Shown here: positions 3,448 to 36,300 of the stretch, piece by piece
Numbering within the stretch: the stretch's first letter is position 1
Layout: each line of letters opens with the position of its first letter
IMG/VR virus record: IMGVR_UViG_3300021426_000003
Location: 1-39,150 of that record
Source of the DNA: a virus
DNA length: 39,150 nt
Direction: 5' to 3' (one strand)
Notes under the pieces: generated by a model
Told to the model about the DNA's origin: nothing
The model's database searches: none
The model's input: only the letters and a program-made list of their open reading frames with translations
Position numbers and translations under genes: made by a program

Positions 3448-4890
3448 TTAAGCCGCTTCCTCCTGCATATATGATGCGTATGTTGACCAGTTGGTTGCAG
3501 TCTTATACGCCTCTAATATGCTGTGGTCTTCTGAGTATGGAACATAGATTATGCAGTCGGTTTGAATATTATTAAATATATTTTTCTTTGCAATTGCGGG
3601 TGGTGTTATTGGAAGAAAATGATATTCTGCCATTCCGCAACAATTACTAAACGCACTATTTCCAACGCTTGTTACTCCTTCGGGAATAGTTATACTTGAA
3701 AGACTGTAACAATAACTAAACGCATTACTTCCAATGCTTGTTACTCCTTCGGGAATAACTATGCTTGAAAGACTGTAACAATTACTAAACGCATAGATTC
3801 CAACGCTTGTTACTCCTTCGGGAATAACTATACTTGAAAGACTGAAACAATTAAAAAACGCATTACTTTCAACGCTTGTTACTCCTTCGGGAATAACTAT
3901 ACTTGAAAGACTGAAACAATTACTAAACGCACCACTTCCAACGCTTGTTACTCCTTCGGGAATAACTATACTTGAAAGACTGTGACAATTAAAAAACGCA
4001 TCACTTCCAACGATTGTTACTCCTTCGGGAATAACTATACTTGAAAGACTGTAACAATTATAAAACGCATTACTTTCAACGCTTGTTACTCCTTCGGGAA
4101 TAGTTATACTTGAAAGACTGTAACAATTACTAAACGCATAGCTTCCAACACTTGTTACTTCTTTGGGGATAGATATATTGGAAAGACTATAACAATTACT
4201 AAACGCAGAGTCTCCAATATTAGTGATGCCGTTTCCTAATTCAATTTTCTGTACAGCATTAGTATATACTCCCGAAACGTTGGTTGATGCTGAAGTAGAT
4301 TTTTGTAAAATGAGTGCTCCAAAGAATGTAAACGAACCGCTTACAACTGTTAATTTTATTACATAATCGCCGGGGGCATATATATGCTGTGCTGTTGTTA
4401 CTGTAGTAAGCGAAGTACCAGTAAGCGTCTCCGTATTGCTTCCATCCCCCCAATCAACTTCGACACTACCATTTACTCCAATGCCCAAATACGGGCTTGT
4501 TCGTCCTTCCTCAAAATGCACATAAATGCGAGTTTTCCCATCATCAGTAATGTACATCTGACCGATGTCACACTTGCCCATGGACTGCACCTGCGATTTC
4601 ATGTCGGCAAGAGACCAGTTCCAACCCTGTGCAGTCAATCCATCGTGAGATGGATTCTCTGGCAGAGCAGTCAGAGCAAGAGCCTCTGCGGTTGTGTATG
4701 AATGCAGGATTGTGCCGTCATAGTCAATGAAATTGACGTCCTTTCTAGGGGCAGAGACAGTACTGCCGCCCCTACCATACCCACTCGCAAGTGTATGCAC
4801 GGCATCAGAGAGATTCGTATCACTTCCCCCTGTTACCTCATTAGCGTAAGTGGTTAAGGCATTGATTGAATCAGTTAATGGAGTTGCCAT
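3448..4890 (-). CDS. BspA/TpLRR-type leucine-rich repeat protein (LRR_5-like), probable virion adhesin or receptor-binding protein
   Basis: 480 aa with 23-aa repeats IPEGVTSVGxxAFxNCxSLSSIx and a PKD-like VDWGDG..HIY.PGDYVIKL segment. No signal peptide. Starts 1 bp after the tail fibre stop. Confidence 0.85.
   Translation of the reverse strand: MATPLTDSINALTTYANEVTGGSDTNLSDAVHTLASGYGRGGSTVSAPRKDVNFIDYDGTILHSYTTAEALALTALPENPSHDGLTAQGWNWSLADMKSQVQSMGKCDIGQMYITDDGKTRIYVHFEEGRTSPYLGIGVNGSVEVDWGDGSNTETLTGTSLTTVTTAQHIYAPGDYVIKLTVVSGSFTFFGALILQKSTSASTNVSGVYTNAVQKIELGNGITNIGDSAFSNCYSLSNISIPKEVTSVGSYAFSNCYSLSSITIPEGVTSVESNAFYNCYSLSSIVIPEGVTIVGSDAFFNCHSLSSIVIPEGVTSVGSGAFSNCFSLSSIVIPEGVTSVESNAFFNCFSLSSIVIPEGVTSVGIYAFSNCYSLSSIVIPEGVTSIGSNAFSYCYSLSSITIPEGVTSVGNSAFSNCCGMAEYHFLPITPPAIAKKNIFNNIQTDCIIYVPYSEDHSILEAYKTATNWSTYASYMQEEAA
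3637..4119 (-). repeat. Seven near-identical 69-bp tandem repeats encoding LRR units (plus a diverged unit at 4120-4188)
   Basis: Unit in coding sense: AGT CTT TCA AGY ATA nnT ATT CCC GAA GGA GTA ACA AnC nTT GnA AnY nnT GCG TTT nnT nAT TGT nnC; 7 x 69 = 483 bp. Confidence 0.95.
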
Positions 4891-4891
4891 A

Positions 4892-7207
4892 TCAAATCAC
4901 CCCCAATGCTGTAAGTGCGGAAGAATAATCCGCATAAACATCGTCAAGGTGCTGTTTGTCTTGTACAGACATTACCCCGTTTCGTGTGGTTGTTACAATC
5001 GGCACATTAGCCACTCCATCCTGTACGATACTCGTTCCATTTATTTGTACATCGTCAACCTTACCATCCAACACTCCAGCAACACTAACAACTTCAACAT
5101 TCGTACCTTCATTAACATATTCACCAGCCGTTAATGCAGTCTTTGCTCTATATAACTTACCACCAATAATAAACAACTCGCCTACCACATGAGCAGATTC
5201 AAATGGGTCTGATTCATGTGATGCAATGAGTGGTGTTATACCTAACATATTTTGGATTGAGTCTTTAGCGTTATCTGTATATTGACCAAGTGGAAGAGTG
5301 GAATTTTTCTCGTCCGCTCCAGAAGCTTTTGCTAAACCATAAAATACCGAATAATGCTGATTCGCTGGCATAACTGGTCTATATGAAGTACTAGCACCTT
5401 TCATCTCTGCACCATTTGCCCCCGCTATTAAAAGCAATCCATCAGATTTACGAATTTTGGTTCCAGTCGTCTCTGATACTTTGACAACTCCAAGAGCGGT
5501 AGTACTTGCAATTGGCACATCAGCCACACCATTATTGACGATAGAAGTACTATCGATTTGCACATCCGTCAAATACCCACTCAAATCAACACTAGCACTA
5601 CCAAACATTTCCCAAGCGCCATTTACATAAACCCACTCGGTAAATAAATCTGGACTTGTTCCACCTGCTGTAGGGACTAAATAAAATGTTTTATCATCTG
5701 GATTTGCTATAGTAGGAATTCTAGTTTCAGCATTATACTCACTAGCACTACAAATATGAATCTCCATATCTGTAGCTGGTTCTCCTTTTTCTCCCTTTTC
5801 ACCTCTAATAGATGTGGTAGTATATTGAGTCCCATCAGTGAAATTAATCGTTAATGTATAATCATTATTCAACACAGTTGATGCAATACCATTACCAATA
5901 TCACCTTTTAACCCTTTTTCTCCACGTATAGACGGAGTGGTATAAGATGTACCATCCGTGAAAGTTATAGTTAATGTATAGTCAGAATTAAGAGCAGTGT
6001 TCTCAATACCATTTCCAGTTTTACCAATATCACCCTTATCACCTTTAGTACCACGAGCGTCAACATTGGTATTTACATATTCATTCTTACTTGCATCCCA
6101 TACATACCAATAACCATCAACAACTTTTGGATAATGAGTAACATTAGTAGCGGATTGATTTTTAAATTCTTCTGCTTGACTTGCGCTTTCAGATGCATTA
6201 ATTGCAGACTGGTTAGCCTCATTTGCAGACTGACTTGCGTTATCAGCAGATTCAGAAGCACTTAACGAAGCATTGTCTGCTGATATCATACTTTGATATG
6301 CTTCACGAGCATTTTCAAAAACATTATCAGCGGTATCGTCAATCTGAGTTTTTAGCGATTGAACATCACCCTTAATAGTTTGGGCACCATCTTTTGCAGT
6401 AATGGTTTCGTCTCTATAACCCTTAGTCTCATCCCTGTAATCAACAATATTCTGCTTTGCTTGTTCCGCTTCGTTCTTAAAAGTCTCAGCCTCATCTCTA
6501 AAACCTTTTGCTTCAGCGGATGCATCATTAGCAACTTGTGCTTTTTGATTAGCTGTGTCTTTACTCTCAAGCGCACTTTGAGCATAGCCCTTTGCTTCAT
6601 CAGAATAATCCAAAGCCTTACGTTCAGATTCAGCAGAATTCTGTGCAGATTGTTCAGAAGCATTTGCCGACTCTCTGGCACTCTGAGCGTCTTGACTAAC
6701 CGCACTTGCGGTAGAATTAATCTCTTCTTTTAAACTAACAACTTCTTCTTTGATAGTTGCGACTTGAGTTTTATCAGCATTTGTCTTATCCGCATTTTCA
6801 TTTGTAATATCAACCGCATTATTTAATTCAGCTATTGCCTTATCAATTGCTGACTGTTGTACAGGAAGAGGTTCTTCGTCTGTAGGTTTTGCCCTTTTAA
6901 TTAATGGTATTTTGACTTCATAAATTGTTTCCCCATCATCAGTTCCATTATGAAGATATATCCAAGCATATATCTCTAAAGCGCCACTCCAAAAATATTC
7001 ATCGGGAATTTCTACAAGTTTGTCACTACCAATCTGTGTTTTGGATTCACCCCTATTCTTATTTGAAAAATGCACTTCAAAAACTTGAGGCAGATTTAAA
7101 TCCGCAAAATATAAATATTGTCCATGATTATATTGATATTGTGATTTAGAGGTGATGAGATGTTTACCTTTAAAATAAAGATAAATTATATTTTGTTTTA
7201 AACTCAT
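4892..7207 (-). CDS. Tail fibre protein (BppU-like N-terminus, Ala/Ser-rich coiled coil, collagen-like repeats)
   Basis: ORF track 4892..7222; the ATG at 7207 has a GGAGG SD. YQYNHGQ..LP..FEVHF N-terminus, Ala/Ser-rich heptads, GxKG triplets, duplicated LNxDYTLTIxFTDGTxYTTxSIRGEKG and duplicated DVQIxxTSIVxxGVAxVPI. Confidence 0.7.
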   Translation of the reverse strand: MSLKQNIIYLYFKGKHLITSKSQYQYNHGQYLYFADLNLPQVFEVHFSNKNRGESKTQIGSDKLVEIPDEYFWSGALEIYAWIYLHNGTDDGETIYEVKIPLIKRAKPTDEEPLPVQQSAIDKAIAELNNAVDITNENADKTNADKTQVATIKEEVVSLKEEINSTASAVSQDAQSARESANASEQSAQNSAESERKALDYSDEAKGYAQSALESKDTANQKAQVANDASAEAKGFRDEAETFKNEAEQAKQNIVDYRDETKGYRDETITAKDGAQTIKGDVQSLKTQIDDTADNVFENAREAYQSMISADNASLSASESADNASQSANEANQSAINASESASQAEEFKNQSATNVTHYPKVVDGYWYVWDASKNEYVNTNVDARGTKGDKGDIGKTGNGIENTALNSDYTLTITFTDGTSYTTPSIRGEKGLKGDIGNGIASTVLNNDYTLTINFTDGTQYTTTSIRGEKGEKGEPATDMEIHICSASEYNAETRIPTIANPDDKTFYLVPTAGGTSPDLFTEWVYVNGAWEMFGSASVDLSGYLTDVQIDSTSIVNNGVADVPIASTTALGVVKVSETTGTKIRKSDGLLLIAGANGAEMKGASTSYRPVMPANQHYSVFYGLAKASGADEKNSTLPLGQYTDNAKDSIQNMLGITPLIASHESDPFESAHVVGELFIIGGKLYRAKTALTAGEYVNEGTNVEVVSVAGVLDGKVDDVQINGTSIVQDGVANVPIVTTTRNGVMSVQDKQHLDDVYADYSSALTALGVI

Positions 7208-7237
7208 ATTTATCCTCCACAATTTATTTTCTAATTT

Positions 7238-8038: not shown

Positions 8039-9754
8039 TTATTTTCTTTTTACATAGGAAGAATAGACATAGCCATACTTCCCGTTATACTTGATTAAAT
8101 ACCAGTCACCATCTTGATGACATACGCCTATCTCTGTTCCTTTACGAAGAGGACTGAAACTACAAGTTTTTGCGGAAGTAGTAGGCTGAAGTCTGACATT
8201 TAATGTGCCACCATTTGTTTTAACAATACCGTTCCATTTAACAGTATGGATATCATCAACTACAGGGTCGGGATTTGATATTTCACTAACCTTTGTTTTA
8301 CCAATATACTGGCTCTGTACATATCCAAACTTTCCATTATATTTAATAAGATACCAATCGCCTTGCTCATAAGACACGCCAACTTCTGTGCCTTGCTTTA
8401 AGCCACTAAAAGAACATTCTTTTGCCTTTGTGTTAGGCTGAAGTCTGACTGCAAGTTTTGTGTTCTTACCAATATTAACATAACCCTTCCATTTAACCGT
8501 ATGCATATCATCTGCAACAACAACCTTATTTGTATCAAATGTGATAGCAGTAGAAGAGTAAGCTGGACGGCAGAACTTCGCATTAACACTACTAAGATTA
8601 TATGTTTTCTGACAAACACCGCCACCATTTGGTACAACGGTAGATGCGCCACTAGTATTACCTTCAATTGTGGTAAATGTGTTGCCATTAACCGCAATAA
8701 CTAATCCTGTGTGAGCATATGCACCATTTTTCCAAAAGATTACAATATCACCAACTTTTGGAGTAGAATATTTTGTAAATAATCCAGCAAGAGTAGGACA
8801 GTAAACATAAGGATAATGTTTAAGCAATTGTTTTGCACGTTCTTTACCAAGCGCAGTTTGAAATACCCAACAAATGAACGCCGCACACCAGTAAGAGCCG
8901 TTCCATTCTGGTTTCACAGCCCAGTATTTAACATAATTTCTATCCCCAGCGTTTGCCGTCTTACTATCAAGCTGACTGTTAGAACGTTTCTCAAGATATC
9001 CAATCTCAGCTTTCGCAACTTCAATAACCTTTTCAAGTTCAGATTTCTCTATAGGCTTTTCTTCTTTTACTGGTTCAGAACTTGTATTTGTCACATGATT
9101 AAAAGAAGTTTCCTTCCCATCAATCATCATGTGGAAGTTGTAATATTGATTAGACATATCAACTACACCACTAATGCCATTAACAAATTCTTTAGATGAA
9201 TATTGCCACATGACAAAATAGCCTGTATACTTTGTCATTGTTACGCCATATTCAGCAACCCAAGTATTCTTAACGGCATCACTTGGAATTTGGCTCATAT
9301 CGATATTGTTATAAAACCAAGACCGTGACGCATAAATTCCGCATGGGATTCCCCATTTTAACAAATCCTCACAGATAATGCGGAGCATTCTTGTTCGCTT
9401 TTCTTTAGACAACTTATCAGAACGTCCACTCTTATCTCTCTGAACAACTTCACTATCAAGAAATACAGGCATCTTAATCCTACTGTTTATTACTTCATTT
9501 TTAATAAATAAAGCTTCCTCATGTGCCTCTGAATCTGTAATAGAACATGGAAAAAAGTAAAAGCTATGTTCAATACCATATTCTTCACAGGCTTTTCTGT
9601 ATTCCTTATACCTTGGATCATAAGTTATAATGCCAGTCTTACTTCCTCTGTAACCGATTCTTATTATTACAGGAATTTTTGTAGCTTTAACTTTTGACCA
9701 ATTCGTTACATTATTAAATTGTGAAATATCTATTACTTTTCTCTTAATAACCAT
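8039..9754 (-). CDS. Endolysin: GH25 muramidase + CHAP + 2x SH3b
   Basis: GH25 motifs (IDISQFN, IIRIGYRG, FLDSE, WVAEY, WQYSS), CHAP motifs (YWCAAF, HTGLV, IEGNT) and two L.VRLQP...GDWYLIKYNGK.GYV repeats. Confidence 0.9.
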   Translation of the reverse strand: MVIKRKVIDISQFNNVTNWSKVKATKIPVIIRIGYRGSKTGIITYDPRYKEYRKACEEYGIEHSFYFFPCSITDSEAHEEALFIKNEVINSRIKMPVFLDSEVVQRDKSGRSDKLSKEKRTRMLRIICEDLLKWGIPCGIYASRSWFYNNIDMSQIPSDAVKNTWVAEYGVTMTKYTGYFVMWQYSSKEFVNGISGVVDMSNQYYNFHMMIDGKETSFNHVTNTSSEPVKEEKPIEKSELEKVIEVAKAEIGYLEKRSNSQLDSKTANAGDRNYVKYWAVKPEWNGSYWCAAFICWVFQTALGKERAKQLLKHYPYVYCPTLAGLFTKYSTPKVGDIVIFWKNGAYAHTGLVIAVNGNTFTTIEGNTSGASTVVPNGGGVCQKTYNLSSVNAKFCRPAYSSTAITFDTNKVVVADDMHTVKWKGYVNIGKNTKLAVRLQPNTKAKECSFSGLKQGTEVGVSYEQGDWYLIKYNGKFGYVQSQYIGKTKVSEISNPDPVVDDIHTVKWNGIVKTNGGTLNVRLQPTTSAKTCSFSPLRKGTEIGVCHQDGDWYLIKYNGKYGYVYSSYVKRK

Positions 9755-9811: not shown

Positions 9812-11023
9812 TTACCACTTCTTAGATTTAGCATTTAACAGAGAATTAATTTCATCTTGAATAAGCTGACCATATCCTCTGCCAAACTTCTTATCAAGAT
9901 TTCTAATTCTCTCTTCATTTTGACCAAAATTTAATTTACCGCTTATAATCTGTTTCGCCACGTTCACCATAAGTGTTACTCGCTTCTGAACGACAGTAGG
10001 ATTATATCCAATATCAAGAAGCTTTGTTACCCTTGTTTCACTAGTACCATACTTATTCATAAATACATTGCGTACAATATTAACAAGACCTGTTGTCTTC
10101 AGTGTATTCACTCCTTTATAAGGTACAGAATATGTATATTCTTTACCGCCTTTATAGATTGTAAATTTACCATTCGCAACTGTGAAGTTAATATCGCCGA
10201 TACACTCAAATACCTTAATACCAGCTTGTCTACAACGATTTGCGCCAAACTCTGTAAAGTCGGTTGTTCCAACTCCATTAGGTTCAAGTTGATTATACCA
10301 ACAATAATCAGCACCTTGATTCTTCAAACCGTTCGCTTGAGAACGAGGGCAGTTGTTGCCGTGGTGTGGAATCTTAAAACATTTAACCTTAACACGGAAT
10401 TTTCCCTTACTATTAGCATTTTCTTTTGCGTCCATCTCCTTAATAAAATCCCAGACTCTCTCAGAACCATCGCCACTCGTCCAATAATACCATTCGTAAA
10501 AATAACAACACAGGCTTCCATCATTGACATAAGACCAACCATTATCATCGTCATCTTCAACACGACTTGGTTGCTTCCTATAAACCTTGAATTTAATATC
10601 CCCAAGTTCGACTTTATCACCATGTTTTAAAAACTTTACAGGAATCTTTTTGTTCTTGGCTTCAGATATAATTCTGTTAAGATATTCAATATCTTCACGG
10701 ACAGCTTTACTGCCTTTGTTATTCCTAAGTCCGCCCTCAAGTGTTTTAGGGTCATAACAATAAAAAGCTAATACTGTAAAATAATCATCTCTAATAATTT
10801 TCTTAAGACCATCCGCATGGTCGTAATGAGGATGGGAGAGCAGAAGATATACTTTCTTAATCCCATTTCTCTTTAAATAGTTAATGAGGGCTGTGGCACA
10901 TTCGTCACAACCCCCATCAATAATAAAACATATTTTATTTTTATCATCTATGAACACGGTTGAATCACCATGTCGTGTTTCTCTACTGGGTCTGTTGAAC
11001 CCAGCTATCCAACCTCTAATCAT
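9812..11023 (-). CDS. MBL-fold metallo-hydrolase (ComEC/Pce-like) with C-terminal Cpl-7 (CW_7)-like repeats
   Basis: Motifs GDST, IIDGG, SHPHYDHADG (HxHxDH), NDGSL, SGD and KIPHHG. C-terminal IVRNVFMNKYGTSETRVTKLLDIGYNPTVVQKRV plus a second similar unit. Confidence 0.8.
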   Translation of the reverse strand: MIRGWIAGFNRPSRETRHGDSTVFIDDKNKICFIIDGGCDECATALINYLKRNGIKKVYLLLSHPHYDHADGLKKIIRDDYFTVLAFYCYDPKTLEGGLRNNKGSKAVREDIEYLNRIISEAKNKKIPVKFLKHGDKVELGDIKFKVYRKQPSRVEDDDDNGWSYVNDGSLCCYFYEWYYWTSGDGSERVWDFIKEMDAKENANSKGKFRVKVKCFKIPHHGNNCPRSQANGLKNQGADYCWYNQLEPNGVGTTDFTEFGANRCRQAGIKVFECIGDINFTVANGKFTIYKGGKEYTYSVPYKGVNTLKTTGLVNIVRNVFMNKYGTSETRVTKLLDIGYNPTVVQKRVTLMVNVAKQIISGKLNFGQNEERIRNLDKKFGRGYGQLIQDEINSLLNAKSKKW

Positions 11024-23593: not shown

Positions 23594-26500
23594 TTAACGT
23601 ATAACATAACTATACTTTTTATAATTATTATTACCATTAGCTTGACCTAATGTAATCTCTTGAACCCATTTTTCCAGCTTTTTATTATTCATTAAATCAT
23701 TTACAAATTTATTTGCATCTTGAACACCATTAGCGATAAATTGCATATTCACAACAGGTGGTTGATTATTAGAATTATTATTATTACTTTGAATGACTTT
23801 TATATCAGGTGCAGTATATTGTTTAAGATATTTAGCTGGATCAGTTAATGCCTGATACATATTTTTCATGGCATTATTAGGAATCACAGAATCACCTTTA
23901 CTCAAAGGAGTGAGAATAGCACCATCTGATTTCCTGATAATTGCTTCAGGTTTATTACCTTCATTTGTCCAATAAAGGTCATCACGAGAAACACCTTTAG
24001 TACCAGATTTATAACCTTTCCATTTACCATCTGTATCAAATGTGAGCCATCCCCTGTTTGTTTTCTTTTTACCATTAGCAACCATAAAGCCGTTTGCATC
24101 AAGATAATAATCACCTTTAACAGGTTTTACGGTTACTGTACCTTTATGAATCCACTGATTTTTAATCATCTTTTTTGTTTTAGGGTCAAAGAAATTCCAT
24201 TGCCCAGATTTTCTTTTATACCAGCCACTTGAAGCTTTACCATCAGCTCCAAAATGATACAAACCATCTCCAACCTGTCTCCAGTCATTCACAATCATAG
24301 CTCCAGTTTTACCATCAAAATAATACTTAGCGCCATTAATAGTTTGAAGACCTTTTTGATTAACACCATTTTTATCAAAATAAAACTTTCTATTATTAAT
24401 AGTCTGAAGACCAGTAGACATCTTACCATTAGCTCCAAAATGATACAAATCTTTACCTACTTGTCTCCAGTTATTAGTAACCATACCATTTTTGTCAAAA
24501 TAATATTTAGTACCATTAATAGTCTGAAGACCTTTTTGGTTAACACCAGCATTATCAAAATAGAATTTTTTACCATTAATAGTTTGAAGTCCTTTTAGCA
24601 TTTCGCCATTTTGATTGAAATAATATAATTTACCACCAACATTTCTCCAAGTATTAGTAGCCCTAGAACCATCACTATCTAAATGGTATGTCTTTCCACC
24701 AATATTGATAAACTGAGAACCAGACATTTGTTCACCGTTATTAAAACGATATGTCTTACCATTCTTAGCAGCCCAACCTGTATATTTTTCATCAAGTGTA
24801 CCATCGTCTCTGAAATAACCATTCTTAGTTTTTCCGTTTGCATCAGTATAAGATTGGATATGAGTACCACTTTCCTTAACTTTATCAGCCATAATTCTAT
24901 TTTTAGCTCCTTGTTCAGAAGCATTTTGAGCTGATAAGAAATATTTAACAATAGTATCAACACCCTCAGCAATACTAGTCACAGCAGGATTTTCAAAACT
25001 ACCATTAAAATAACTAACTAAATTATTAGACATTGTATCAATAGCAGCTTTTAATGTATCAGAAGGAGTATAACCATAAGAATTCGCTACATCATTAATG
25101 GTATCTTTAATTACATTCTTATTTTCGTTTGTAGCATTAATTACTTCTCTAACAATTCCTTCAATGTTTTTAAGTTTATTTTCTAAGAATTCTTCAAACT
25201 TTTCTTCAAAGTCTCCAAGCATATCCTTAGTTTCAGACAAACGTCTGTCTTCTTGAGTCTCTTGAAGGTCTTGTCTCTTTTCATTAATTTGGTCTCTTAA
25301 CTGCTGACGTTTAGTAGCACCTTCTTCAGAATTATCATTTTGAATTGCTCTATATTGCTTTTCAAGTTTATTAATTTCTTTTTGTTGGTCAGCTACTTTT
25401 TTAGCATAATCAGTTTGGTCTTTTTGAGTTTCTAATAAATCTTCATAATCTTCAATTAGTTTCTTTACATAATCAATCTGTTTTTTAATACCATCTTCAG
25501 TTAAATCGACCATAGATTCTTTCATCTTTTTGGCATTAGCAGATGCATCTTGTTGAGCTTCTTTAAGCTCTTTTAATTTATCTACAAGATTCTGATCATA
25601 TTTATTTTCAGCTTTTGCCATCTGACGATTAACTTCATTAATTTCAGATTGATAACGTTGAACTTCTCTGAAATATGTATCATATTCTTGAGCAAGCAGT
25701 GCAAATCCAGTAATACCTTGATTAGTAATAGTACCTTGCTCATCAAACATTTCATCTTCATTGAGCAAATCATAGAAAAACTCTAATTCATTAACAACTC
25801 CACCAATAGCATCATGAACTTTTTCCCATCTGTCATAATTAATATCTCTAATATTATTTGCAAAAGTGATGAGATTTGTATTTGCTTCAGCAATAGATTC
25901 ACTGACTTCGTTGATAGACTGTTGCATCTCATACCAAGCTTCAGACCCTTTAGTAATTTTACCTGAATTAACAGCTCTATCTCTTAATCTGATTAAACTA
26001 TTATATTCATCTGTTAATTGAACAAGACGTTTTCTCTCTAGTGCAATTTGTTGAGTAACGTTGGTTACTGAACCAAGTCTACCAGCTTCTGACAATTGGT
26101 CATTATAAGCATCAATTAAATCAATACTATGTTGAGTATTAGCTATAACCTCTTCATAATAACTTTGTTGATTATCAAAAAGTTGCTTATATAATTCACC
26201 TTCTTTTTCTCTAAGGTCAATAACAGCATCCTTTGCGGCTAAGGCTTTTTCATAATAAGTCTTATATTCGTTTATTTTATCCCATAAATCAGAATCTTTT
26301 ACATCTTCAATTCTAAACGCACCATTTTGAACTTTAGTTCTCCAACCAGCAGATAAACCAACAGAATTAGCCTTTTTAATATATGTAGTATAAGCTTTTT
26401 CTTGGTCTTTAATTTCAGTAGACACATTCTTTAAATTAGAAGCAATAGCGTTGTTGCGTTTTGCCCATGCAGAATATGTACTGCTGATGGTTTTATCAAG

Positions 26501-29500
26501 ATTAGAAATTTGACGCTCAATACGAGCAATAAGGATTTCAACTTCATCTAATGTGTTCTTAGTTTCTTTAGCATCTTTGGAAGAAGAATTACCTCCACCA
26601 GACCTACCAGAACCACCGCCTGAAGATCTGCCAGAACCACCGCTTGATTTTTTAGAACTAGACTTTTTATTGCTACTAGTAGAAACTCTGGCTCTAGTAG
26701 CTCCATTTCTAGAACCACTAGAATAAGCAGTACCATTGGCAAATCCAACTAAATGTCCACGACCTTTATTAGAAGTGACATAACCATTTTCTAATAATTC
26801 TTTCGCCTGCTCGTGGTTGAAAACAATATCTCCACGCTTAAGATTAACAAATTCAGCACCATCATCACCAACAGTAAACCAATTACCATCACGAACAACT
26901 ATTTCTGTTCCCAGCTCTCCTGTAAGAGCAGTTTGATTTTTAGGAAGACCCCAATTACCACCAGCATAAGCAGAACCTCTAGAAAATGCAGTACCATATG
27001 CATGAGCTGTACCATTGGCTGCTGGTATTTTTGTGGTTTTTTCAAAGGTTTCAATGGTTAATGACTTATAAGTGGTCATATTGTTTAATTTATTATCAAT
27101 AGTATTAAGCTTATCTATAGCATTACCACCAAGATTAGCGTATCCCCACCAAGTAGTACCGTTATAATCTTCTCCCTTGCTTATTAAAGTATTAACAGCA
27201 TTCATTCCTTGAGAATTGTCACCATTGAATTTAGCTTCTGCTGGATTTTCTTCTATTTCCTGCTTTCCTTGTAAAATTTCTTCTTGCTTTTGTTTTGCTA
27301 GTTCAGTATTAGCATCTACATCAACAACTATATCCTTACCATCCATAGCATTCATGCGTTCTTCATCTGCTGCTAATTTTTGGTTATAAGCTTCGTCATT
27401 GATATCCATTGTAGTAGAAGAGTAATTCTCTTCTTTATTAATTTCGGTCTTAATATGAGTTTCATCTTTATTAACAGAAACACTTGTATCTTCAGCCGCT
27501 TTGTCTATATCTTTTTCTAACTCTTCAGTATCTCCATGTAATAATACATCAACATCTCTTTCTCCCGATTCAAGCATTTCAAATATTTCTGCTGATGTTT
27601 TTTGAGGGTCAATATTTAAACTTCCTAATATGTCAAGAGTTCCTTCTTCATAAATAATAGATAAAAGTTGTTTTACTTTTTCATCTTCAGAAAAATTAAA
27701 CTTAATATTATGTTCTTTTTCGAGTTCTTTAGCATTAGCCAAGTATTGTTCTAATTCATCTTTGGCATTTTTAACATCGTTAAAAGCCTCAACAGTATTA
27801 CCTTTAAACTCTGGGTCTGCTTCATAATTATCAATTATATTTAATTGGTCAATAGCGTCATAAAGAATATTTAAGAATGATTCGGCAGTAGAAGTATCTA
27901 TTGCACCAGAATCTTTCAATCCTTCAATATATTCTTTAGCTTTTTCTAATCCTTGTGCATCAGTAATAGAATCCCAATTATATTCTGACAATTCTTTTGG
28001 AAGATTTCCTACATCTTCAACTAATTGTTTTATTGAATCAGTTGCCTTTTCAGCTACTTTTATTTTTAAATCTATATCACCTTTATCAGCAGCTTCTCTT
28101 TCAAGAGCAACTAAATAAGCTAACATATCTTGAGCATTTTCAATTAAATCCGTTTTAACATCAGGAGCTAATTCATCACTATTTTGGATTTTCTGAATAT
28201 AATCATAAACATCACTAACATGTCCACTTAATACGTCATATGCTTCATCAGATTTTAAGAACTCTTCATCAAATTTACTAAAATCAATATTATTAAATCC
28301 ATCAAGTTCTTCTTGAGCTGCTACAGCCTTATCTTTTAATTCATTCATCGCCCACATAGGCTGGTCAAGATTTAATTCAAAACCTGCACTAACAGCGGCA
28401 CGAAGCATAGATTGGAAAAATTCAACATCTATTCCTAAAGCTTCAGCGGCTTCTCTATCTCTACCAAGTCCAAAATCATATGTGCCATCATCTTTAATCC
28501 ATTTTTCATTATCTTCAAGCCCACGCTGTTCTTGTTTTTCTTTAAGAGCATCAAAGAAATTAAAAATACCATTAGATGTTAATTTACCGCTGTCATCAAA
28601 TTGGAAGAAATCATGAATTGAAAATGAAGTGCCCTCAATTTTTTCATCGAGTTTATCAAACATTTCAGCACATTCTTCACCACTTGCGGTAAATGCATCA
28701 AATGATTCTCCATAAATCAAATCAAGATAACTTCTAACAGTATCATCACCACTCCAACCACGGTCAATCAAATCTTTAACCGTATCATAACCAGCGGCAA
28801 TTTTATCATACATATCATACTCATTACCATTTGACTGAGCATTAATCCATGTCTGATAAGCAGAAGTAGAAGCTTGATATGCCATCATCAAATCTTGAGT
28901 ATCTTGTATTCTTTGTAAAATATCTTTTCGTCGAGATAAAAGACCAGAAGTATCTTGCCCTTGACTACTCATTGAAACAATTTCATCATTACAACGTTTA
29001 AGGGCATCATATTGAGCATCTAATGTATTTTGGAATTCAGTATTCATTAATGCCTTTTGTTTATCAGTTAATGTTTGAAGATTTTCAGCATTAATATGAT
29101 AACCATTTGCACTTCTTTCAAGAGCATAAACATAATCATCTCCAAACATCTCTTTAAAAGCATCAATATTTTGAGTGGAAATACCAGCACCAGAAGAAGA
29201 TTCAGATAATACTGTATTTAATTTAGATACATTTTCAATTGCAGTAGCAACTTCTTGAGAAAACTGATTATAAGCATCACTAGCAGAAAGAGCAGCATCT
29301 TCGACACCACCATAAATGATTTCATTATCAACTAACATATCAATCATAGCGCTTGCATCATCCATGGTGTATCCTAATGCATTCATTAAATCTTCTAAAG
29401 CATATCTATAAACCTGACTTCCATTCGCACTATCATCAAAAGCCTGTTCAGCATCAACTCTATCTATATCTAAATCTATAACCCTTTTTAAAGCTTGATA

Positions 29501-32137
29501 TAATTGTTTGTCTTCTTTAGTATATTTGCCAGTTGCTTTAGTAACATCTTTTAAATCTTTTTCTTGACTTTGCATATACTCATCAAAAGATTTACCTTGT
29601 TTAATGGCTTCTTTCCATTCATTTTGATAATTAGCAATATATCCTAACGACCTCGATTGCCACTCATGAAGTCTGTCTTCAGCAATTTTTTCAGGAGTCC
29701 AAACAGCAGATCCACCCTGAATATTATTTCCAATTTGAGCAATTACATTTGATATTTTTTGGTCATCAATTATTAAACCTTCAGCATCAAGTTTTAATAA
29801 TTCTTCATTAGTCCAACCTTCACCAGCATTTTTAATTAATGTGTCTATATAATTATAAAGAGTATCTCTGTTTAATAATTTTCCTTTGCCTGTGCCATCG
29901 TCAATAATAGGCGTAAAAGCAATTTCTATACCATCAAATTTTTCAGATGCTCCAAAAGCTGTAGAATAATCACCTATAATATCTTCAACAGATTCTCCCC
30001 AAGATTCAAGAGCATCTTTTTGCTTTTCTGCTTCTTCTTTGTCCCAGAAGATAATAGGTCTATTTGTATTATCAATATTACCAATTTTATCTATGCCTGC
30101 TTTTTTTAAATAATTATTATAATTATCAGATATCTGTTTTTCTCTTTCATATTCATCAAATCGAGATAAATCATCACCTAATTGAAGAGCATTTTTAAGC
30201 GCCTTGGTAGCATCTTCGGTTTTATTTTTTGTATCAACAATAGAAGTATCTATTTGGTCAAATAACATTGAATATTGATTATTGCTAGGTACTTTTAAGA
30301 ATTCATCTTTGGCTTTAGTAGCTTCTTCAAAAGCTTCACGAGCTTCATTTATTTTCTTTGTATCTCCAGATATATATGCAGATTCAAGGTCTGAGACGGA
30401 AGATTGATAATTTGAATATACATTATAATCTTGAGCGCCACCTGTTGCCATCAGTTTAATAGGTAACCCTTCAAAATAAACCGATTCATTTTCTTGTCTT
30501 ATTTTAGTTATCGTATCTATATAAGTATTAAGATATGTTAATAAATCATCAGTTCTTTTTTGGAATTGTTCATTATTAGGATTTTGTTTTTGAAGCGTTT
30601 CGATTTGTTCAATTAATTCATTTATTTTTTCTTCTGCTTCTATAGGAGTACCACTAATAACACGATAAGGACTAAGAGACCCAGAATCACGACTAGGTTT
30701 TCTTAATTCTCCATATTGTTTAAGCAGGTCAGCGAGAGCTTTGTCTTCATCTGTTTTAATATCATTAATATCAAAAGCCTCACCTAAAGAATAATCACTT
30801 TCAGTAGTCATTGCTTTTTTAGCTATTTCAAATCCTTTTTGATAATCAGCACTATTCCAAATTTTATTTGCTTCGGCTTGAGATATATTAGATATTATAT
30901 CAAGCTGCTCTCGGAGTTTACCGTTTACTAAATCAATTTTACCTGCATTTTCACCATATTGTTCTGTAATTTGTTTTTGTATATTATATATTTCTTGTTT
31001 TGTTTGTAAAGTTTCTTGTTCAGATAAGTTGCCAGTATCTAATTTGGTTTTTAATTCTTCATATTGGGATGCGTAATCAGAAAGGGATTGTTTTTGAGAT
31101 TGCCATTCTTCACCAGTAGTCCTAGCTGAATCTACAAGTTCTTTTCGTACTTGTTCTTGGTGTTTAATGAACGCATGAATCAAAGTACCAATAATACCGA
31201 TAGCCGTGCCAACACCCATTATCATTGGAATAGCAGCAGAAAAACTACCTCCTATTGCTTTACCAGCGGATATACCCGTAGAAGCTAATGACCCCATTAG
31301 ATTCTCTTGTTTAGCAAGAGCTTTTATTGCTTCTTTACTACCTTTGATTAATTCATAAGCAAAACCTTTACCGTTCTGATATCCAACTATACTTCTTACT
31401 CCCACAATAGCGGTAAAAGCTGTACCTAATAAACCAACATTATCAACAACTTGAACAATTGCTTTTCCTAAATCTATGAAAAAATTAACAGTATCTCTAT
31501 TCATACTATTAGCCCACATTTGCTGATAAGCATTTTGTAATTGAGCTATATGACCATTGATACTGTTCATATACTTTTCATTTTCTTCCATTGCTGAATT
31601 TTCTGCTTCTTGAGAAGATTTATAAGCATCCCTAAGAAGTTGAGGATTTTGGAAAATAGAAGCAGCGATATTTGCACGATTCTTTCCTGCAACAGATTCT
31701 AATAATAAATTAGCATTATTTCTACCAAGTTGTTTATCTGTTTCAAGAATTTCATCATAAACATCCGCAATACCTAACATAATCTCATAAGTAGATTTAT
31801 AATTTCCATTATTATCTAAAATATCAAATCCTTTAAAATTGTTAGAAGCAACTGCCGTCGCTTCTTTAATTGTGTCTCTAAGTTTTGATTGAGTTGTTAA
31901 CATTGAATCTGTTTCTTCACCCAGTTCTTCAAGTTCTTCTTTTGCTGATTTAGTGCCAGTAAGACGAAGAGCGATAGTACGCATACCAGTTCCTACTTTA
32001 TTTGCATCTTGAACTACTGCATTACCAGCTGTAATAAGTGCAAGAGCTTCATCCATATCATTACCAGCTGTTTTTAAAGCAGAAGCAGAATTTTGAAGAG
32101 CAGTAGCAGCCTCTGAAGTTGAGATTGCATAATTATT
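23594..32137 (-). CDS. Tape measure protein, exon 2 (2847 codons), with C-terminal cell-wall-binding repeats
   Basis: Begins mid-domain (NNYAISTSEAATALQNSASALKTAGN...VGTGMRTIALRL, TP901-family TMP core). Contains hydrophobic segments, long coiled coils and a GELGTEIV motif. Joins exon 1 in frame once the intron is removed. Confidence 0.9.
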   Translation of the reverse strand, partial: NNYAISTSEAATALQNSASALKTAGNDMDEALALITAGNAVVQDANKVGTGMRTIALRLTGTKSAKEELEELGEETDSMLTTQSKLRDTIKEATAVASNNFKGFDILDNNGNYKSTYEIMLGIADVYDEILETDKQLGRNNANLLLESVAGKNRANIAASIFQNPQLLRDAYKSSQEAENSAMEENEKYMNSINGHIAQLQNAYQQMWANSMNRDTVNFFIDLGKAIVQVVDNVGLLGTAFTAIVGVRSIVGYQNGKGFAYELIKGSKEAIKALAKQENLMGSLASTGISAGKAIGGSFSAAIPMIMGVGTAIGIIGTLIHAFIKHQEQVRKELVDSARTTGEEWQSQKQSLSDYASQYEELKTKLDTGNLSEQETLQTKQEIYNIQKQITEQYGENAGKIDLVNGKLREQLDIISNISQAEANKIWNSADYQKGFEIAKKAMTTESDYSLGEAFDINDIKTDEDKALADLLKQYGELRKPSRDSGSLSPYRVISGTPIEAEEKINELIEQIETLQKQNPNNEQFQKRTDDLLTYLNTYIDTITKIRQENESVYFEGLPIKLMATGGAQDYNVYSNYQSSVSDLESAYISGDTKKINEAREAFEEATKAKDEFLKVPSNNQYSMLFDQIDTSIVDTKNKTEDATKALKNALQLGDDLSRFDEYEREKQISDNYNNYLKKAGIDKIGNIDNTNRPIIFWDKEEAEKQKDALESWGESVEDIIGDYSTAFGASEKFDGIEIAFTPIIDDGTGKGKLLNRDTLYNYIDTLIKNAGEGWTNEELLKLDAEGLIIDDQKISNVIAQIGNNIQGGSAVWTPEKIAEDRLHEWQSRSLGYIANYQNEWKEAIKQGKSFDEYMQSQEKDLKDVTKATGKYTKEDKQLYQALKRVIDLDIDRVDAEQAFDDSANGSQVYRYALEDLMNALGYTMDDASAMIDMLVDNEIIYGGVEDAALSASDAYNQFSQEVATAIENVSKLNTVLSESSSGAGISTQNIDAFKEMFGDDYVYALERSANGYHINAENLQTLTDKQKALMNTEFQNTLDAQYDALKRCNDEIVSMSSQGQDTSGLLSRRKDILQRIQDTQDLMMAYQASTSAYQTWINAQSNGNEYDMYDKIAAGYDTVKDLIDRGWSGDDTVRSYLDLIYGESFDAFTASGEECAEMFDKLDEKIEGTSFSIHDFFQFDDSGKLTSNGIFNFFDALKEKQEQRGLEDNEKWIKDDGTYDFGLGRDREAAEALGIDVEFFQSMLRAAVSAGFELNLDQPMWAMNELKDKAVAAQEELDGFNNIDFSKFDEEFLKSDEAYDVLSGHVSDVYDYIQKIQNSDELAPDVKTDLIENAQDMLAYLVALEREAADKGDIDLKIKVAEKATDSIKQLVEDVGNLPKELSEYNWDSITDAQGLEKAKEYIEGLKDSGAIDTSTAESFLNILYDAIDQLNIIDNYEADPEFKGNTVEAFNDVKNAKDELEQYLANAKELEKEHNIKFNFSEDEKVKQLLSIIYEEGTLDILGSLNIDPQKTSAEIFEMLESGERDVDVLLHGDTEELEKDIDKAAEDTSVSVNKDETHIKTEINKEENYSSTTMDINDEAYNQKLAADEERMNAMDGKDIVVDVDANTELAKQKQEEILQGKQEIEENPAEAKFNGDNSQGMNAVNTLISKGEDYNGTTWWGYANLGGNAIDKLNTIDNKLNNMTTYKSLTIETFEKTTKIPAANGTAHAYGTAFSRGSAYAGGNWGLPKNQTALTGELGTEIVVRDGNWFTVGDDGAEFVNLKRGDIVFNHEQAKELLENGYVTSNKGRGHLVGFANGTAYSSGSRNGATRARVSTSSNKKSSSKKSSGGSGRSSGGGSGRSGGGNSSSKDAKETKNTLDEVEILIARIERQISNLDKTISSTYSAWAKRNNAIASNLKNVSTEIKDQEKAYTTYIKKANSVGLSAGWRTKVQNGAFRIEDVKDSDLWDKINEYKTYYEKALAAKDAVIDLREKEGELYKQLFDNQQSYYEEVIANTQHSIDLIDAYNDQLSEAGRLGSVTNVTQQIALERKRLVQLTDEYNSLIRLRDRAVNSGKITKGSEAWYEMQQSINEVSESIAEANTNLITFANNIRDINYDRWEKVHDAIGGVVNELEFFYDLLNEDEMFDEQGTITNQGITGFALLAQEYDTYFREVQRYQSEINEVNRQMAKAENKYDQNLVDKLKELKEAQQDASANAKKMKESMVDLTEDGIKKQIDYVKKLIEDYEDLLETQKDQTDYAKKVADQQKEINKLEKQYRAIQNDNSEEGATKRQQLRDQINEKRQDLQETQEDRRLSETKDMLGDFEEKFEEFLENKLKNIEGIVREVINATNENKNVIKDTINDVANSYGYTPSDTLKAAIDTMSNNLVSYFNGSFENPAVTSIAEGVDTIVKYFLSAQNASEQGAKNRIMADKVKESGTHIQSYTDANGKTKNGYFRDDGTLDEKYTGWAAKNGKTYRFNNGEQMSGSQFINIGGKTYHLDSDGSRATNTWRNVGGKLYYFNQNGEMLKGLQTINGKKFYFDNAGVNQKGLQTINGTKYYFDKNGMVTNNWRQVGKDLYHFGANGKMSTGLQTINNRKFYFDKNGVNQKGLQTINGAKYYFDGKTGAMIVNDWRQVGDGLYHFGADGKASSGWYKRKSGQWNFFDPKTKKMIKNQWIHKGTVTVKPVKGDYYLDANGFMVANGKKKTNRGWLTFDTDGKWKGYKSGTKGVSRDDLYWTNEGNKPEAIIRKSDGAILTPLSKGDSVIPNNAMKNMYQALTDPAKYLKQYTAPDIKVIQSNNNNSNNQPPVVNMQFIANGVQDANKFVNDLMNNKKLEKWVQEITLGQANGNNNYKKYSYVIR
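24020..24850 (-). repeat. About 20-aa choline/glucan-binding-type (CW_binding) repeats inside the TMP
   Basis: Units such as GLQTINGKKFYFDNAGVNQK and NWRQVGKDLYHFGANGKMST; a block of about 180 bp is visibly duplicated at DNA level (24361.. vs 24541..). Confidence 0.85.
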
Positions 32138-33390
32138 CAATCTGTTACTTTCGGTTTATCAACCTACTGACTATAATTATTAAAAATTATAGCGATAAGG
32201 ACGTTAATCCTTATTCTCACATTTCATTAAAATTAGATTATAGTGTGAGTTCGGACTGTATATTACATCCTTTATAAAGGATGAATAGCTTCAATATTAT
32301 TGTTACCAATAATATCCCGCAGTCTCTACGGTTTCAATGTATTATATAAAATTTTTTTAATATCCTCATTAGTTAAATCAAACCTTAATCTTATTAAAGG
32401 GATGTTATGTTTTAAACAATATTCATCTTTAATAGAATCTCTTTCTTGAGTTTTTTTTAGCCCTTCTTCTCCACCAAAAAAATCTTTAGAAACAAAATGC
32501 TGTTGACCATCATATTCTATTAAATATAATATGTTCATATCACTATCGAAAATTGCAAAGTCGAATTTTAATTTATATTTATATTTACAATCCGAAAAAG
32601 AATACTGACGAATGTATATTATTCCCATTTTTTGCAAAAGTTTCTCAATATAATCTTCATGTGAAGATAATATTCTACATCCACAAGATGTAGTATGACC
32701 ATTAACGACTTTTGCTGGTAAAATAGAAAAGACATTACCACATAAAGGGCATTCACATTTCCAAATCCATTGTCCAAAATCATTCATATAATCCCGTTCA
32801 ATGAATCTAATATCTGTATCAGAAATAAAATTAGACCAATCTTTTGTATTCGTCTCAGATATTCTTTCTTTCCAAAGACAACCACAAGACTGGGTATGTC
32901 CAGATTGTACATCATTTTTATTTAATATTACCGTATTACCACAATCACAAACACATTTTACTTTTACTGGAGTTTCTTCCCATATTATCTCTTGTACAAC
33001 AAGTCTTCCAAAACGTTGGCTAGTTATATCTCGTCCGTTTTTTTCTATCCAACGCATTTTTCTTGCGCATCCGCAAGAATGGTATCTTTTATTTTTTAAA
33101 GTGCTTGCTCCGATAGTAACAATTTTTCCGCAATCACATTGACATTTACAATATTTTCGACTTTGACCTTTATCATCTTTTTTAAAAATTGTATCTATTA
33201 CCGTTAGCATATCAAATTTTTGTCCATCTAATATTATACGTCCCATTTTTCTCCTTTTATTTATTTTATTTATAATACATTGTCTTACCTCGGTCTTAAC
33301 TATCTCTAGCCTTTAACCGATATAGCTATTTGCTGATATAATATTTACGTATTATATCTGTATGTTACCATACATTTAGGCTATTTTCAA
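32138..33390 (-). mobile_element. Group I self-splicing intron (IA-like, 1253 nt) in the TMP gene
   Basis: 5' splice site after U (GTAGGT|TTGAAAATAGCCTA; P1 TAGGT/GCCTA with U.G). Terminal G before AAT AAT TAT. P3 AATAGCT (33324-33330)/AGCTATT (32284-32290); P4 TCGGTT/GACCGA; P7 GACTG (32320-32324)/CAGTC (32254-32258); extra P7.1 stem; P8 CATCCTTT/AAAGGATG. Splicing restores DKLNEVG|NNYAIST in frame. Confidence 0.92.
32326..33246 (-). CDS. Intron-encoded homing endonuclease (Vsr/DUF559-like EDxHD-type nuclease with three Cys-rich N-terminal repeats)
   Basis: 306 aa with AAGGAG SD; three C.C(D/P)..G...SCGC repeats; C-terminal E...FDFAI...LIEYDGQQH...RD..K..YC....IPLIRL. The stop codon overlaps the intron R element (CCGTAGAGACTG). 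Confidence 0.85.
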   Translation of the reverse strand: MGRIILDGQKFDMLTVIDTIFKKDDKGQSRKYCKCQCDCGKIVTIGASTLKNKRYHSCGCARKMRWIEKNGRDITSQRFGRLVVQEIIWEETPVKVKCVCDCGNTVILNKNDVQSGHTQSCGCLWKERISETNTKDWSNFISDTDIRFIERDYMNDFGQWIWKCECPLCGNVFSILPAKVVNGHTTSCGCRILSSHEDYIEKLLQKMGIIYIRQYSFSDCKYKYKLKFDFAIFDSDMNILYLIEYDGQQHFVSKDFFGGEEGLKKTQERDSIKDEYCLKHNIPLIRLRFDLTNEDIKKILYNTLKP

Positions 33391-36300
33391 ACCTACTTCA
33401 TTTAATTTATCTATTATATTCATTTTAGATAAATCATCATAAGCAGCCCCCATAGCAATTAAACTCTTAGTTGCTTCATCAACACTTTCAAATTCAGATA
33501 CATTCATTAAAATATTAGCAACTTTTGCAGATTCAGCGGCTTCACTTAAACTTTCACCCAAACGCATAAAATCGGCAGTACTATTTTGAATTTGTAACGC
33601 AGTTGCTCCTATTGCATCAGCTGTATCAAAAGTTGTTTTTTGATAATTTTGAAGTGTAGATATTGTTTCATTGGAAACTTTTTGCATTTCCGTTAAAGCT
33701 GTATCAAATTCTCTAATAATATTTATTCCTTGTTTAAAATAACCCCATAAACGATAAAAACCAGTGAATGATGCAAGAGTAGTAAATAAACCTCTCCATT
33801 TAGTGGTCAATTCATCTGCAAGAGTCTTAAATAAGCTTTCTGGTTCTTGTACTTTTTTAGTTGCTACTGCAACAGTGCCCATTGCTTTATCATAAGTAAA
33901 TTCAAATTCTGATATTTTTCCTTTTGTATCTTGTATTATTCTTGAAAATTTAATAAATTCATTACCGTCTTTATCGGTTATTATTCCAGTTCGAGATGAT
34001 TCGGTTATTTTCCCTTTCGCTTCTACATATTTATCTATTACTTTATTAAGTTCTTCAATATCAGATGTTTTAGGAATATTTTGTTCTATTACCCGACCCA
34101 TCTGATTATTTATATTCATTGAATCTGACGATAATACTTTTTTTAATTCTTCTAATCTTAAAACCAATTCATGTATTTTCTCTTTATCTTCTTCATATTT
34201 TTGAGTTTGTTCTTTAGTTGTACCTTTGGTTAAATTAGTAGTTAATTCATTTAATTGCTTTTGAGTTTCTACAAATTGGTTGTAAATTTCGGTATAGCGT
34301 TCAATTTTATCTCCAGCACTGCTAGGGTCAGGTATATCTTTAAACCAATTATTTAAGTTGTTAATCTTATTTCCATTTATTTCCGTATTAATAATTTTCA
34401 TACGGTTTAATTGTTCATTTACTTTATTTAACTGTTCATTAAAAGTACCATAAGCATTAGAAACTTCAACAATATTACCGACTCTATTTCCACTTTCATC
34501 TGTTGTATTATACTTATTTACAGCCTCTCGAAGTGCATCATAATAAGTTGTTAATATCCCTAATTCTTTTTCAACATTCACTAATTCTTTTGTTGGGTCT
34601 TCAGTATTCCAATTAATAGCTAATTTATCATATGTCGATTGAGCTTTATCTAATTTAGTTCTTCTAGATATTTCTCCAAACATCATATTGGGGATAGGAC
34701 TTAAAGAAGAAGAACCTTTTCTTGCATTGCTCACAACATTATTATATACAGTTTCTAATTCACTTTTTAATGTTTCTGCTCTTTGTAAACTTTTTTCATT
34801 TATAAGAGAAGCATCATTAGCCAACTGATTTAATTCTTTCATTTGATTTGATTGAACAAAATTTTCAGATGTTTTATTATTAAAAGATGCTATCCATTGT
34901 TGTAATTTTTCACGTTCTCTTTGATTTCTTTCAAGCTCTTTAGTAAAACTGGCAATTCTTTTTTGTTCATTATCAATTAATTGGATATTAGTTTGTATTA
35001 TTTTAGATTCTCCAGTTTCTTTATCGGTAATACTCTTAAAACTGTCAGTAATAATACTTTTATCTTCTGGATTTTCTCTAGTAATAGTAGCAGATTTTAA
35101 TTTAAAACCTGAAGTAACATTAAATACACTTTTTGTATGATTATAACCTTGTGATTTATACCATTCTGCAAATCTTTCTTCCATTGATTGATATGCTTCT
35201 TCATATGATTTAAATCCTTTTTCAAATTCATCAGATTCTTGCTGATATATTTTGGCTAATTCTTTTTCTGCGCCGACAACTTCTCCTTCAAATACTTCAA
35301 TATGAGGAATTGTTTCAAGTTCTGTTTTTTGTTGTTCAATTTGTTTAGTTGTTTCTTTAACTGCTTTTTGAATTCTAACTTGTGTATGTTCAACATCTTC
35401 TGCATATCCATCATCTACCATGGTAAAACCATTTGTAGAAATCATAGAAGTATTTTGAGATTGTTTTGTTTTTTTGTTTTTATTAGAATCATTATCTCCA
35501 TAAGATTCTCCTACTATAGTGAAATTAGTAGAAGATTGCTCTTTTCTTGATTTATTTGCTTTATTTTTAGCTTTTTCTATTTGATCATTTGACTCTTTTA
35601 ATTTTTGATTTTCATTTTCAACTTCTTTTGCATTAGACTTGGCACTTTCTGCGACAGATTTGTCAACATCAGATAATTTTTGTTTATTATTAATGACTTC
35701 TGTTAGTATTTTTACAGATTCTTTTAACGCTTCATTTTCTAACTTTAATTGTTCATCTGACTGTGTTGTCTTAGTAGAAGTATTATTTTTTGTTCTATTT
35801 TTATAGTATTCATATTGTCTATATAATTTATCTTGATTTGACTCAGATTCAGTTAATCTGTGAAGAGACATTTGCCCACCAGCATTTTTATATTCATCAT
35901 ACAATGAATACATTAATGTTAATTTATCTTTATTGCCTCTAGCAACAAATTTTCCTTTATCATTAACCATTGAATCATATAAACTTTGTATATATTCAAA
36001 TTGAGAATTTAAATTACTTTTACTAGCCTGACCAGATATTCTTTCAATTAAATCAACTATATCATTTAAAGAATTAACTATATTATCAAATGGAGTAGTA
36101 GAAATTTCTAATTTGTTTATTTTACTAAAATCTATTGATTTTATATTATTAGCCAATTCTACAATTAATAAATTAAGTATAATAATACCATTTTTAATAT
36201 TTTCTATTTGACCGACATAATCTTTTTGCTCAGTCATACCAGCAATAGTAACAATCATTTCCGCTAATATTTTTAAATCATTGCGAAGTCCATCTAACGA

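Follow-up and report, generated by a model that had tools for sequence, protein, structure and literature searches.

A tandem leucine-rich repeat array beside a phage tail-fibre-like gene, probably diversified by duplication, recombination and selection rather than by an adenine-mutating retroelement

Positions 3448 to 4890 of a 39,150-nucleotide stretch of viral DNA (positions 1 to 39,150 of IMG/VR virus record IMGVR_UViG_3300021426_000003, hereafter the window) encode, on the minus strand, a 480-residue protein that contains a tandem array of leucine-rich repeat (LRR) units. The full record is that of a complete virus, 149,019 bp in length, with direct terminal repeats. A sequence-only reading of the window had placed the array at 3637-4119 and had proposed that each of its repeats is varied by adenine-directed mutagenesis of the kind performed by diversity-generating retroelements (DGRs). 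Our analysis of the array, of the complete genome and of related arrays makes it probable that duplication, recombination and selection, not an adenine-mutating retroelement, have shaped the LRR domain of what appears to be a tail-fibre-associated protein. The gene and its parts are as follows.

3448-4890, minus strand: gene P0001 for the LRR_5 protein, 480 residues (from the open reading frame list and its translation)
4282-4890, minus strand: N-terminal domain, approximately residues 1-203, two helices followed by a beta-sandwich (from the secondary structure of the predicted model)
4213-4281, minus strand: degenerate first LRR unit, residues 204-226 (from the unit register)
4144-4212, minus strand: type B unit (SLSNISIPKEVT), residues 227-249, divergent from the core units; the same cassette occurs in the relatives L008 and L026
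3661-4143, minus strand: seven type A units (SLSSI[VT]IPEGVT), residues 250-410, near-identical and 23 residues each
3451-3660, minus strand: C-terminal cap, residues 411-480, with a unit-like start, NSAFSNC (3592-3660), followed by a GMAEYHF...IYVP...AY.TA.NWS.YA motif that is conserved in the family

The array is a BspA/TpLRR-type (Pfam LRR_5) solenoid of a phage protein. Its match to the Pfam model has an E value of 3.7e-67 and scores 224.4 bits against a curated cut-off of 27.7, and Tandem Repeats Finder reports a 69-bp period with 8.2 copies and 89% matches (score 872) at 3639-4207. The interval given in the sequence-only reading lies in this same array but follows another register, and the array in codon phase is wider than that interval. 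An AlphaFold2 model built on 40 relatives (mean predicted local distance difference test score, pLDDT, of 90.4) places in each unit a short strand at unit positions 12-14 and a second strand at 21-22. The best Foldseek matches of the model are to LRR_5 proteins with solved structures from gut bacteria (4fdw, 4fd0, 4gt6 and 4fs7; E = 4e-12 to 2e-9), and pneumococcal PcpA (4cp6) and Treponema TpLRR (6mlx) are further top matches. The cap retains columns that are invariant in the family alignment, among them C417, G419, P430, P431, D445 and C446. No N-terminal hydrophobic segment or signal sequence was found in the 480-residue protein.

Each unit of the array is exactly 69 bp long, and the reading frame is intact. 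The seven type A units, which we also refer to as the core units, have a mean pairwise identity of 90.8%, high-internal-conservation (HIC) repeats being defined by an identity of at least 80%. The hypervariable codons of each type A unit are codons 1, 2, 5, 6 and 8, in the pattern xxAFxxCx. By the secondary structure of the model, the variable positions lie past the short strand of one unit and ahead of the main strand of the next, on either side of the conserved Ala, Phe and Cys, and the main-strand positions expected to be exposed (Ser, Ser and Val/Thr) are almost constant within the array.

Across the seven core units, to which the counts in this and the following paragraph refer, 15 of the 69 columns are variable: six fall on first codon positions, seven on second and two on third, the last two being synonymous T/C changes. 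The sequence-only reading had reported the third base to be fixed apart from two such differences, and this observation is borne out, since codon positions 1-2 account for 13 of the 15 columns that vary. The codon sets it listed were likewise recovered, although some of their members (TGC, and AAT/AGT at the first two codons) stem from the cap unit. That these sets can be derived from AAY codons has no weight as a test for mutagenesis, since the same is true of any codon set with a common third-position pyrimidine.

The adenine-directed character that had been ascribed to the variation is not seen. Variability is found in 5 of the 21 columns with a consensus A and in 10 of the 48 others (Fisher p = 0.76). 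At six of the 15 variable columns every copy lacks an A, and 16 A columns are unchanged in all seven units. If the template is assumed to carry A at every variable column, and these adenines to mutate at the 71% frequency of non-A bases observed there, the 16 invariant A columns would all remain A in seven units with a probability of approximately 1e-61. In addition, the 'mutant' states recur from unit to unit, as at codon 21, where six of the seven units have AGC and the seventh has ATC. The presence of the same states in most units is predicted by inheritance through duplication and is not predicted by independent mutagenesis.

A classical or trans-acting DGR would rewrite each unit from one adenine-rich template by means of a reverse transcriptase (RT) encoded elsewhere, for example by the host. 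Such a system would be consistent with variation concentrated at positions 1-2 of codons such as AAT, AGT, TAT and GAT, and with a residue repertoire (N, S, Y, D, G, H, F) that resembles the yield of AAY mutagenesis; the slightly raised share of consensus-A columns that vary when related arrays are pooled, given below, also favors it, as do RT genes in three of five candidate host genomes, though these lie on contigs other than that of the LRR gene. Against it, no RVT_1 reverse transcriptase (E <= 0.001) and no Avd (TIGR02436) were found in the complete 149,019-bp genome, and no RT was found in five related viral records, three of which are complete. No second copy of the unit was found in the phage's own genome, where only 16-17-nt chance matches occur beyond the array. 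Because a true template would equal the units at their invariant positions, we searched with a 33-nt constant block for exact matches; there were none in reference genomes of 185,579 species (one genome per species), and elsewhere in IMG/VR and the metagenome collections the block occurs only in the array of a related phage (L008/L029). The sequence-only reading had envisaged the units as DGR variable regions that share one template acting in trans, traceable as a non-coding copy of the unit with a nearby RT or Avd; as the complete phage contains neither an RT nor an Avd nor a template, the reference genomes contain no copy of the constant block and there is no adenine bias, this proposal fails. 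Further, the arrays are identical across assemblies, and the domain is an LRR solenoid (Pfam LRR_5), whereas the targets known for DGRs adopt, to our knowledge, C-type lectin or Ig-like folds. The array is not that of a DGR because four defining features of such elements were tested (RT, template, adenine-confined differences and Avd) and none was found, and we give this explanation next to no credence.

An inversion or shufflon mechanism was also considered. It was ruled out by the absence of convincing inverted repeats flanking the array, none of which were found around it.

The N-terminal part of the protein (residues 1-215) has 5689 related proteins at E <= 0.001, and LRR_5 is present in all among the matches listed. 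Matches to genomes are mostly to gut and rumen Clostridia, namely Oscillospiraceae, Ruminococcus, Pseudoflavonifractor, Dorea and Blautia. Six family members (L034, L038, L051, L055, L061 and L064) lie on contigs binned to Bacteroidales, Parabacteroides or Rikenellaceae metagenome-assembled genomes, which means either that phage contigs were mis-binned or that the family has a wider range of hosts. No nucleotide match was found in the GenBank phage collection, and a protein-mode search of GenBank phages found no characterised phage, its matches being unannotated or 'hypothetical' metagenomic records. A search of the literature on phage LRR_5/BspA tail proteins, or on DGR targets with an LRR fold, found nothing directly relevant.

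The positions that vary in this array are also the variable positions of the family. Among 194 units from 40 relatives, entropy is highest at unit positions 1, 2, 5, 6 and 8, together with 17, 11 and 23; positions 1, 2, 5 and 6 are the most variable within arrays, and positions 11 and 17 differ mainly between arrays. Family entropy is correlated with the variability of the array in the window (Spearman rho 0.57, p = 0.004). In the 194 units, the hypervariable positions are most often occupied by Ser, Tyr, Asn, Asp, Gly and Thr, and it is this residue set that made the array look DGR-like. The fixed third base also has a parallel in the family. In 19 related arrays, within-array synonymous divergence (pS) ranges from 0.00 to 0.42, with the array in the window at the young end (approximately 0.05); arrays of low pS show a fixed third base, and older arrays show ordinary third-position variation. 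In the same 19 arrays, the consensus base is other than A in 254 of 393 variable columns.

A viral protein of 1005 residues (L023:3520-6534) contains at least nine near-identical 27-residue repeats (..LL..C..LTSVDLTPLAGW...), which behave likewise in having a constant block and variable positions around the Cys. In one relative (L024:6001-7311), one unit lacks a codon and comprises 22 residues (NNAFYAC-SLSS...), which shows that the variable position ahead of the strand can accommodate in-frame indels.

Comparison among relatives indicates that units are homogenised within arrays and that cassettes are exchanged between phages. Codon 21 is fixed differently by lineage, as AGC in all but one of the core units here and as AGT in all type A units of L008, and other array-wide motifs are particular to each relative (PEG, PAG, PNG, PSS and others). 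Relatives whose N-terminal domains are 83-93% identical range in length from 392 to 480 residues, and three shared cassette types occur in different orders: B-A7 in the window and A-B-A4, (B-A)x3, C3-A and C5 in relatives. In L026 (375-1688), a 46-residue double unit of type B plus type A is repeated three times, so that two adjacent units can evidently be duplicated together. Between phages, the N-terminal domains show a pS of 0.21-0.42 and a nonsynonymous divergence (pN) of 0.03-0.09, and on these values the domain is under purifying selection. The shared units are much less diverged at synonymous sites. Type C units of L025 and L027 have a pS of 0.000, against 0.279 for their N-terminal domains; type A units of the window and L026 have a pS of 0.061, against 0.303; and type B units between phages have a pS of 0.045-0.067, against 0.27-0.33. 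The pair formed by the window and L008 also shows low synonymous divergence, but its numbers are too small, and the argument rests on the other pairs. Judged by synonymous divergence, the shared units are shown to be far younger than the N-terminal domain, and cassette types probably move between related phages.

These comparisons bear on a second suggestion of the sequence-only reading, a recombination-shuffled LRR repertoire conceptually like the variable lymphocyte receptors (VLRs) of lampreys. Between phages the suggestion stands, as the number and order of units differ and the units are much younger than the remainder of the gene. Within one genome it does not: the phage has a single intact gene, with no other LRR_5 gene, copy or fragment found in the genome, and no silent donor LRR cassettes were found, there being no further LRR_5 match or copy of the unit. 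The array is not VLR-like within one genome because these donor cassettes are lacking.

Short-read assembly of near-identical 69-bp repeats is difficult, and the array could in principle be a chimeric or collapsed consensus of population variants, with an order of units and combinations of residues that belong to no real molecule. An independent ENA assembly, however, contains the identical 480-residue protein within 7,156 identical bases that include the whole array, on a contig of 70,996 bp with approximately 100x coverage by its contig name, and a 438-residue relative is identical in four assemblies; to this extent the arrays are also stable. Together with the intact frame, the constant unit length and the occurrence of the same architecture in relatives assembled elsewhere, this makes an assembly artefact very improbable.

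Divergence within the array is unevenly distributed. At synonymous sites it is 0.051 (pS) and at nonsynonymous sites 0.104 overall (pN), and at the five hypervariable codons pN is 0.274, which is 5.4-fold pS. When minimal events are counted, the five hypervariable codons have 10 nonsynonymous events against 2 at all synonymous sites (binomial p = 0.011), and the whole unit has 15 against 2, which is not significant (binomial p = 0.25). Across the 19 related arrays, pN at the five hypervariable codons is 0.16-0.56 and lies above pS in 18. These values have to be set against a simpler account, namely recent duplication with relaxed constraint only, in which five unconstrained surface positions drift neutrally and the excess of amino-acid changes is noise or a by-product of gene conversion. 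The small counts and the whole-unit result agree with that account, as does the fact that the same positions are the least conserved across the family. Neutral drift, however, predicts a ratio of approximately one, whereas the excess at hypervariable codons recurs in nearly all of the independent arrays, often several-fold, and the residues found there are not random but skewed to Tyr, Ser, Asn, Asp and Gly. We consider relaxed constraint alone unlikely, and infer that selection drives the divergence of the variable residues.

The gene that adjoins the LRR gene suggests where the protein may act.

4892-7222, minus strand: fibre-like gene, 776 residues, with a coiled-coil Ala/Ser-rich region, short collagen-like G-x-y runs and weak matches to tail-fibre PHROG families

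The start codon of the LRR gene lies 1 nt past the stop codon of this upstream gene, and a collagen-like or fibre-like gene also adjoins the LRR gene in L024, L025, L031 and L032. In the last three of these, the fibre-LRR pair lies just ahead of the holin and endolysin genes. In one prediction of a complex between three copies of fibre residues 560-776 and residues 1-210 of the LRR protein, the median score was 0.28, against a mark of 0.32, a value that speaks neither for nor against binding. Most likely, the LRR protein is made together with the tail-fibre-like protein and sits on the fibre as a host-binding module.

Several other features of the window are of separate interest. The fibre-LRR pair, which precedes the lysis genes in L025, L031 and L032, follows them here, and this difference in order indicates that the module has moved. 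The endolysin (8039-9754, minus strand) has GH25, CHAP and two SH3 domains, and beside it lies a gene whose product combines a metallo-beta-lactamase fold with a CW_7 repeat (9812-11023, minus strand). A 306-residue HNH/homing-endonuclease open reading frame (ORF; 32326-33246, minus strand; phrog_559, E = 3e-40) lies between giant ORFs on the same strand (23594-32140 and 33376-39150), an arrangement that fits an intron-split tape-measure gene. A 180-bp tandem duplication (24237-24659; 1.9 copies, 76-80% matches) lies inside a 2848-residue ORF.

Taken as a process of duplication, recombination and selection, the history of the array would run as follows. The seven core units would be recent tandem duplicates, kept alike by unequal recombination or gene conversion within the array, and synonymous sites would have hardly diverged because the units are recent and homogenised. 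Over longer times, arrays gain and lose units, and whole cassettes would be replaced by recombination between co-infecting or resident related phages. The five xxAFxxCx positions around the conserved, probably buried Ala-Phe-Cys have gathered amino-acid changes faster than the synonymous rate; they may form a ligand-contacting surface under diversifying selection, with changes there favored because they would alter the ligand of the solenoid, most likely a host cell-surface structure. Ordinary concerted evolution with positive selection had been named as the alternative in the sequence-only reading itself, and it is what the data show.

Some points weigh against this explanation. The test for selection is a count of few events (10 against 2) that ignores gene conversion and tree structure, and its whole-unit form, as noted above, falls short of significance. 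When the 19 related arrays are pooled, the share of columns that are variable is 0.40 for consensus A, 0.36 for G, 0.25 for C and 0.21 for T, a mild excess of A in the direction of the sequence-only reading; we attribute it to the A/G-rich codons of Asn, Ser, Asp, Gly and Tyr. The samples behind the copies that are identical between assemblies may be related, and variants within populations do not show in consensus assemblies. The repeat pattern and the predicted secondary structure suggest an outward orientation of the variable side chains, on one flank of the solenoid, and it is likewise by inference that the protein would be located on the virion and its variable residues would contact the host receptor.

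The immediate consequence is that a false DGR lead is removed, and a practical rule follows: young tandem repeats that evolve in concert can mimic the DGR pattern of variable first and second codon positions with a fixed third, and a test of the variable columns against the invariant adenines settles the question quickly. The analysis also draws attention to a large LRR_5 family that is encoded beside tail-fibre genes in phages of gut and rumen Clostridia, of which our searches found no cultured or characterised member. Within this family, the five variable positions of each unit are candidate determinants of host range. More tentatively, proteins that combine the N-terminal domain, LRR_5 units and the cap could constitute a widespread, uncharacterised receptor-binding platform of these phages, whose specificity would be re-set by duplication and loss of units, by exchange of cassettes between phages and by selection at the five slots, and whose variable slots would sit outside the canonical concave LRR beta-strand. 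We regard this broader proposal, including the position of the slots, as possible but somewhat short of an even chance. If true, the platform would be a counterpart of DGR or VLR diversification that works at the level of populations and without a retroelement.

Several known systems resemble the array in part. The solved BspA/TpLRR-type proteins (4fdw, 4fs7, 4gt6, 4cp6 and 6mlx) share its 23-residue unit, L..I.IP..V..IG..AF..C, and match its predicted fold. They were, however, deposited as bacterial cell-surface proteins and a vaccine antigen, whereas the phage protein lacks a signal peptide, includes an N-terminal beta-sandwich and a C-terminal cap that are specific to its family, and is encoded beside a tail-fibre-like gene. 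The likeness to DGRs lies in the diversification of a few codons of a phage-tail ligand-binding protein, a role that is predicted here, and in a similar repertoire of residues. In contrast to DGRs, the phage array is without RT, Avd, template or adenine specificity, has many invariant adenines, and forms a solenoid rather than a single C-terminal lectin-like region. In gut phages, the BACON-domain tandem repeats of crAssphage tail-associated proteins are presented as a hotspot of evolution (PMC6949934); like the array, they are tandem repeats in a gut phage protein, but the domain is another one and whole domains are repeated instead of 23-residue units.

The closest parallels are in the mode of evolution. 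In the fungal NOD-like receptors (NLRs) het-d and het-e of Podospora, WD40 repeat units are 80-100% identical, which is attributed to concerted evolution, and they have few hypervariable codons under diversifying selection, polymorphism in repeat number and shuffling between genes (PMC12222747). All four of these features of HIC repeats are seen in the phage array. The fungal repeats differ in that they form a WD40 propeller that serves non-self recognition, whereas the phage protein is an LRR solenoid with a presumed role in host adsorption, and exchange takes place among paralogues in the fungus and between phage genomes here. The cell-surface LRR loci of Flavobacterium psychrophilum have units of approximately 22 residues with few hypervariable positions and a strain-variable number of units (Altae-Tran et al. 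2020, PMC10392669), and they bear signs of recombination at the nucleotide level without a retroelement (PMC10392669). They share with the array hypervariable, recombining LRR units of variable number and the lack of a retroelement; unlike it, they encode secreted bacterial proteins in multi-gene tandem loci with gene fragments, whereas the phage has a single gene. The phage array is a member of Pfam LRR_5, and its mode of evolution is one already known for repeats, from HIC repeats and from the F. psychrophilum loci.

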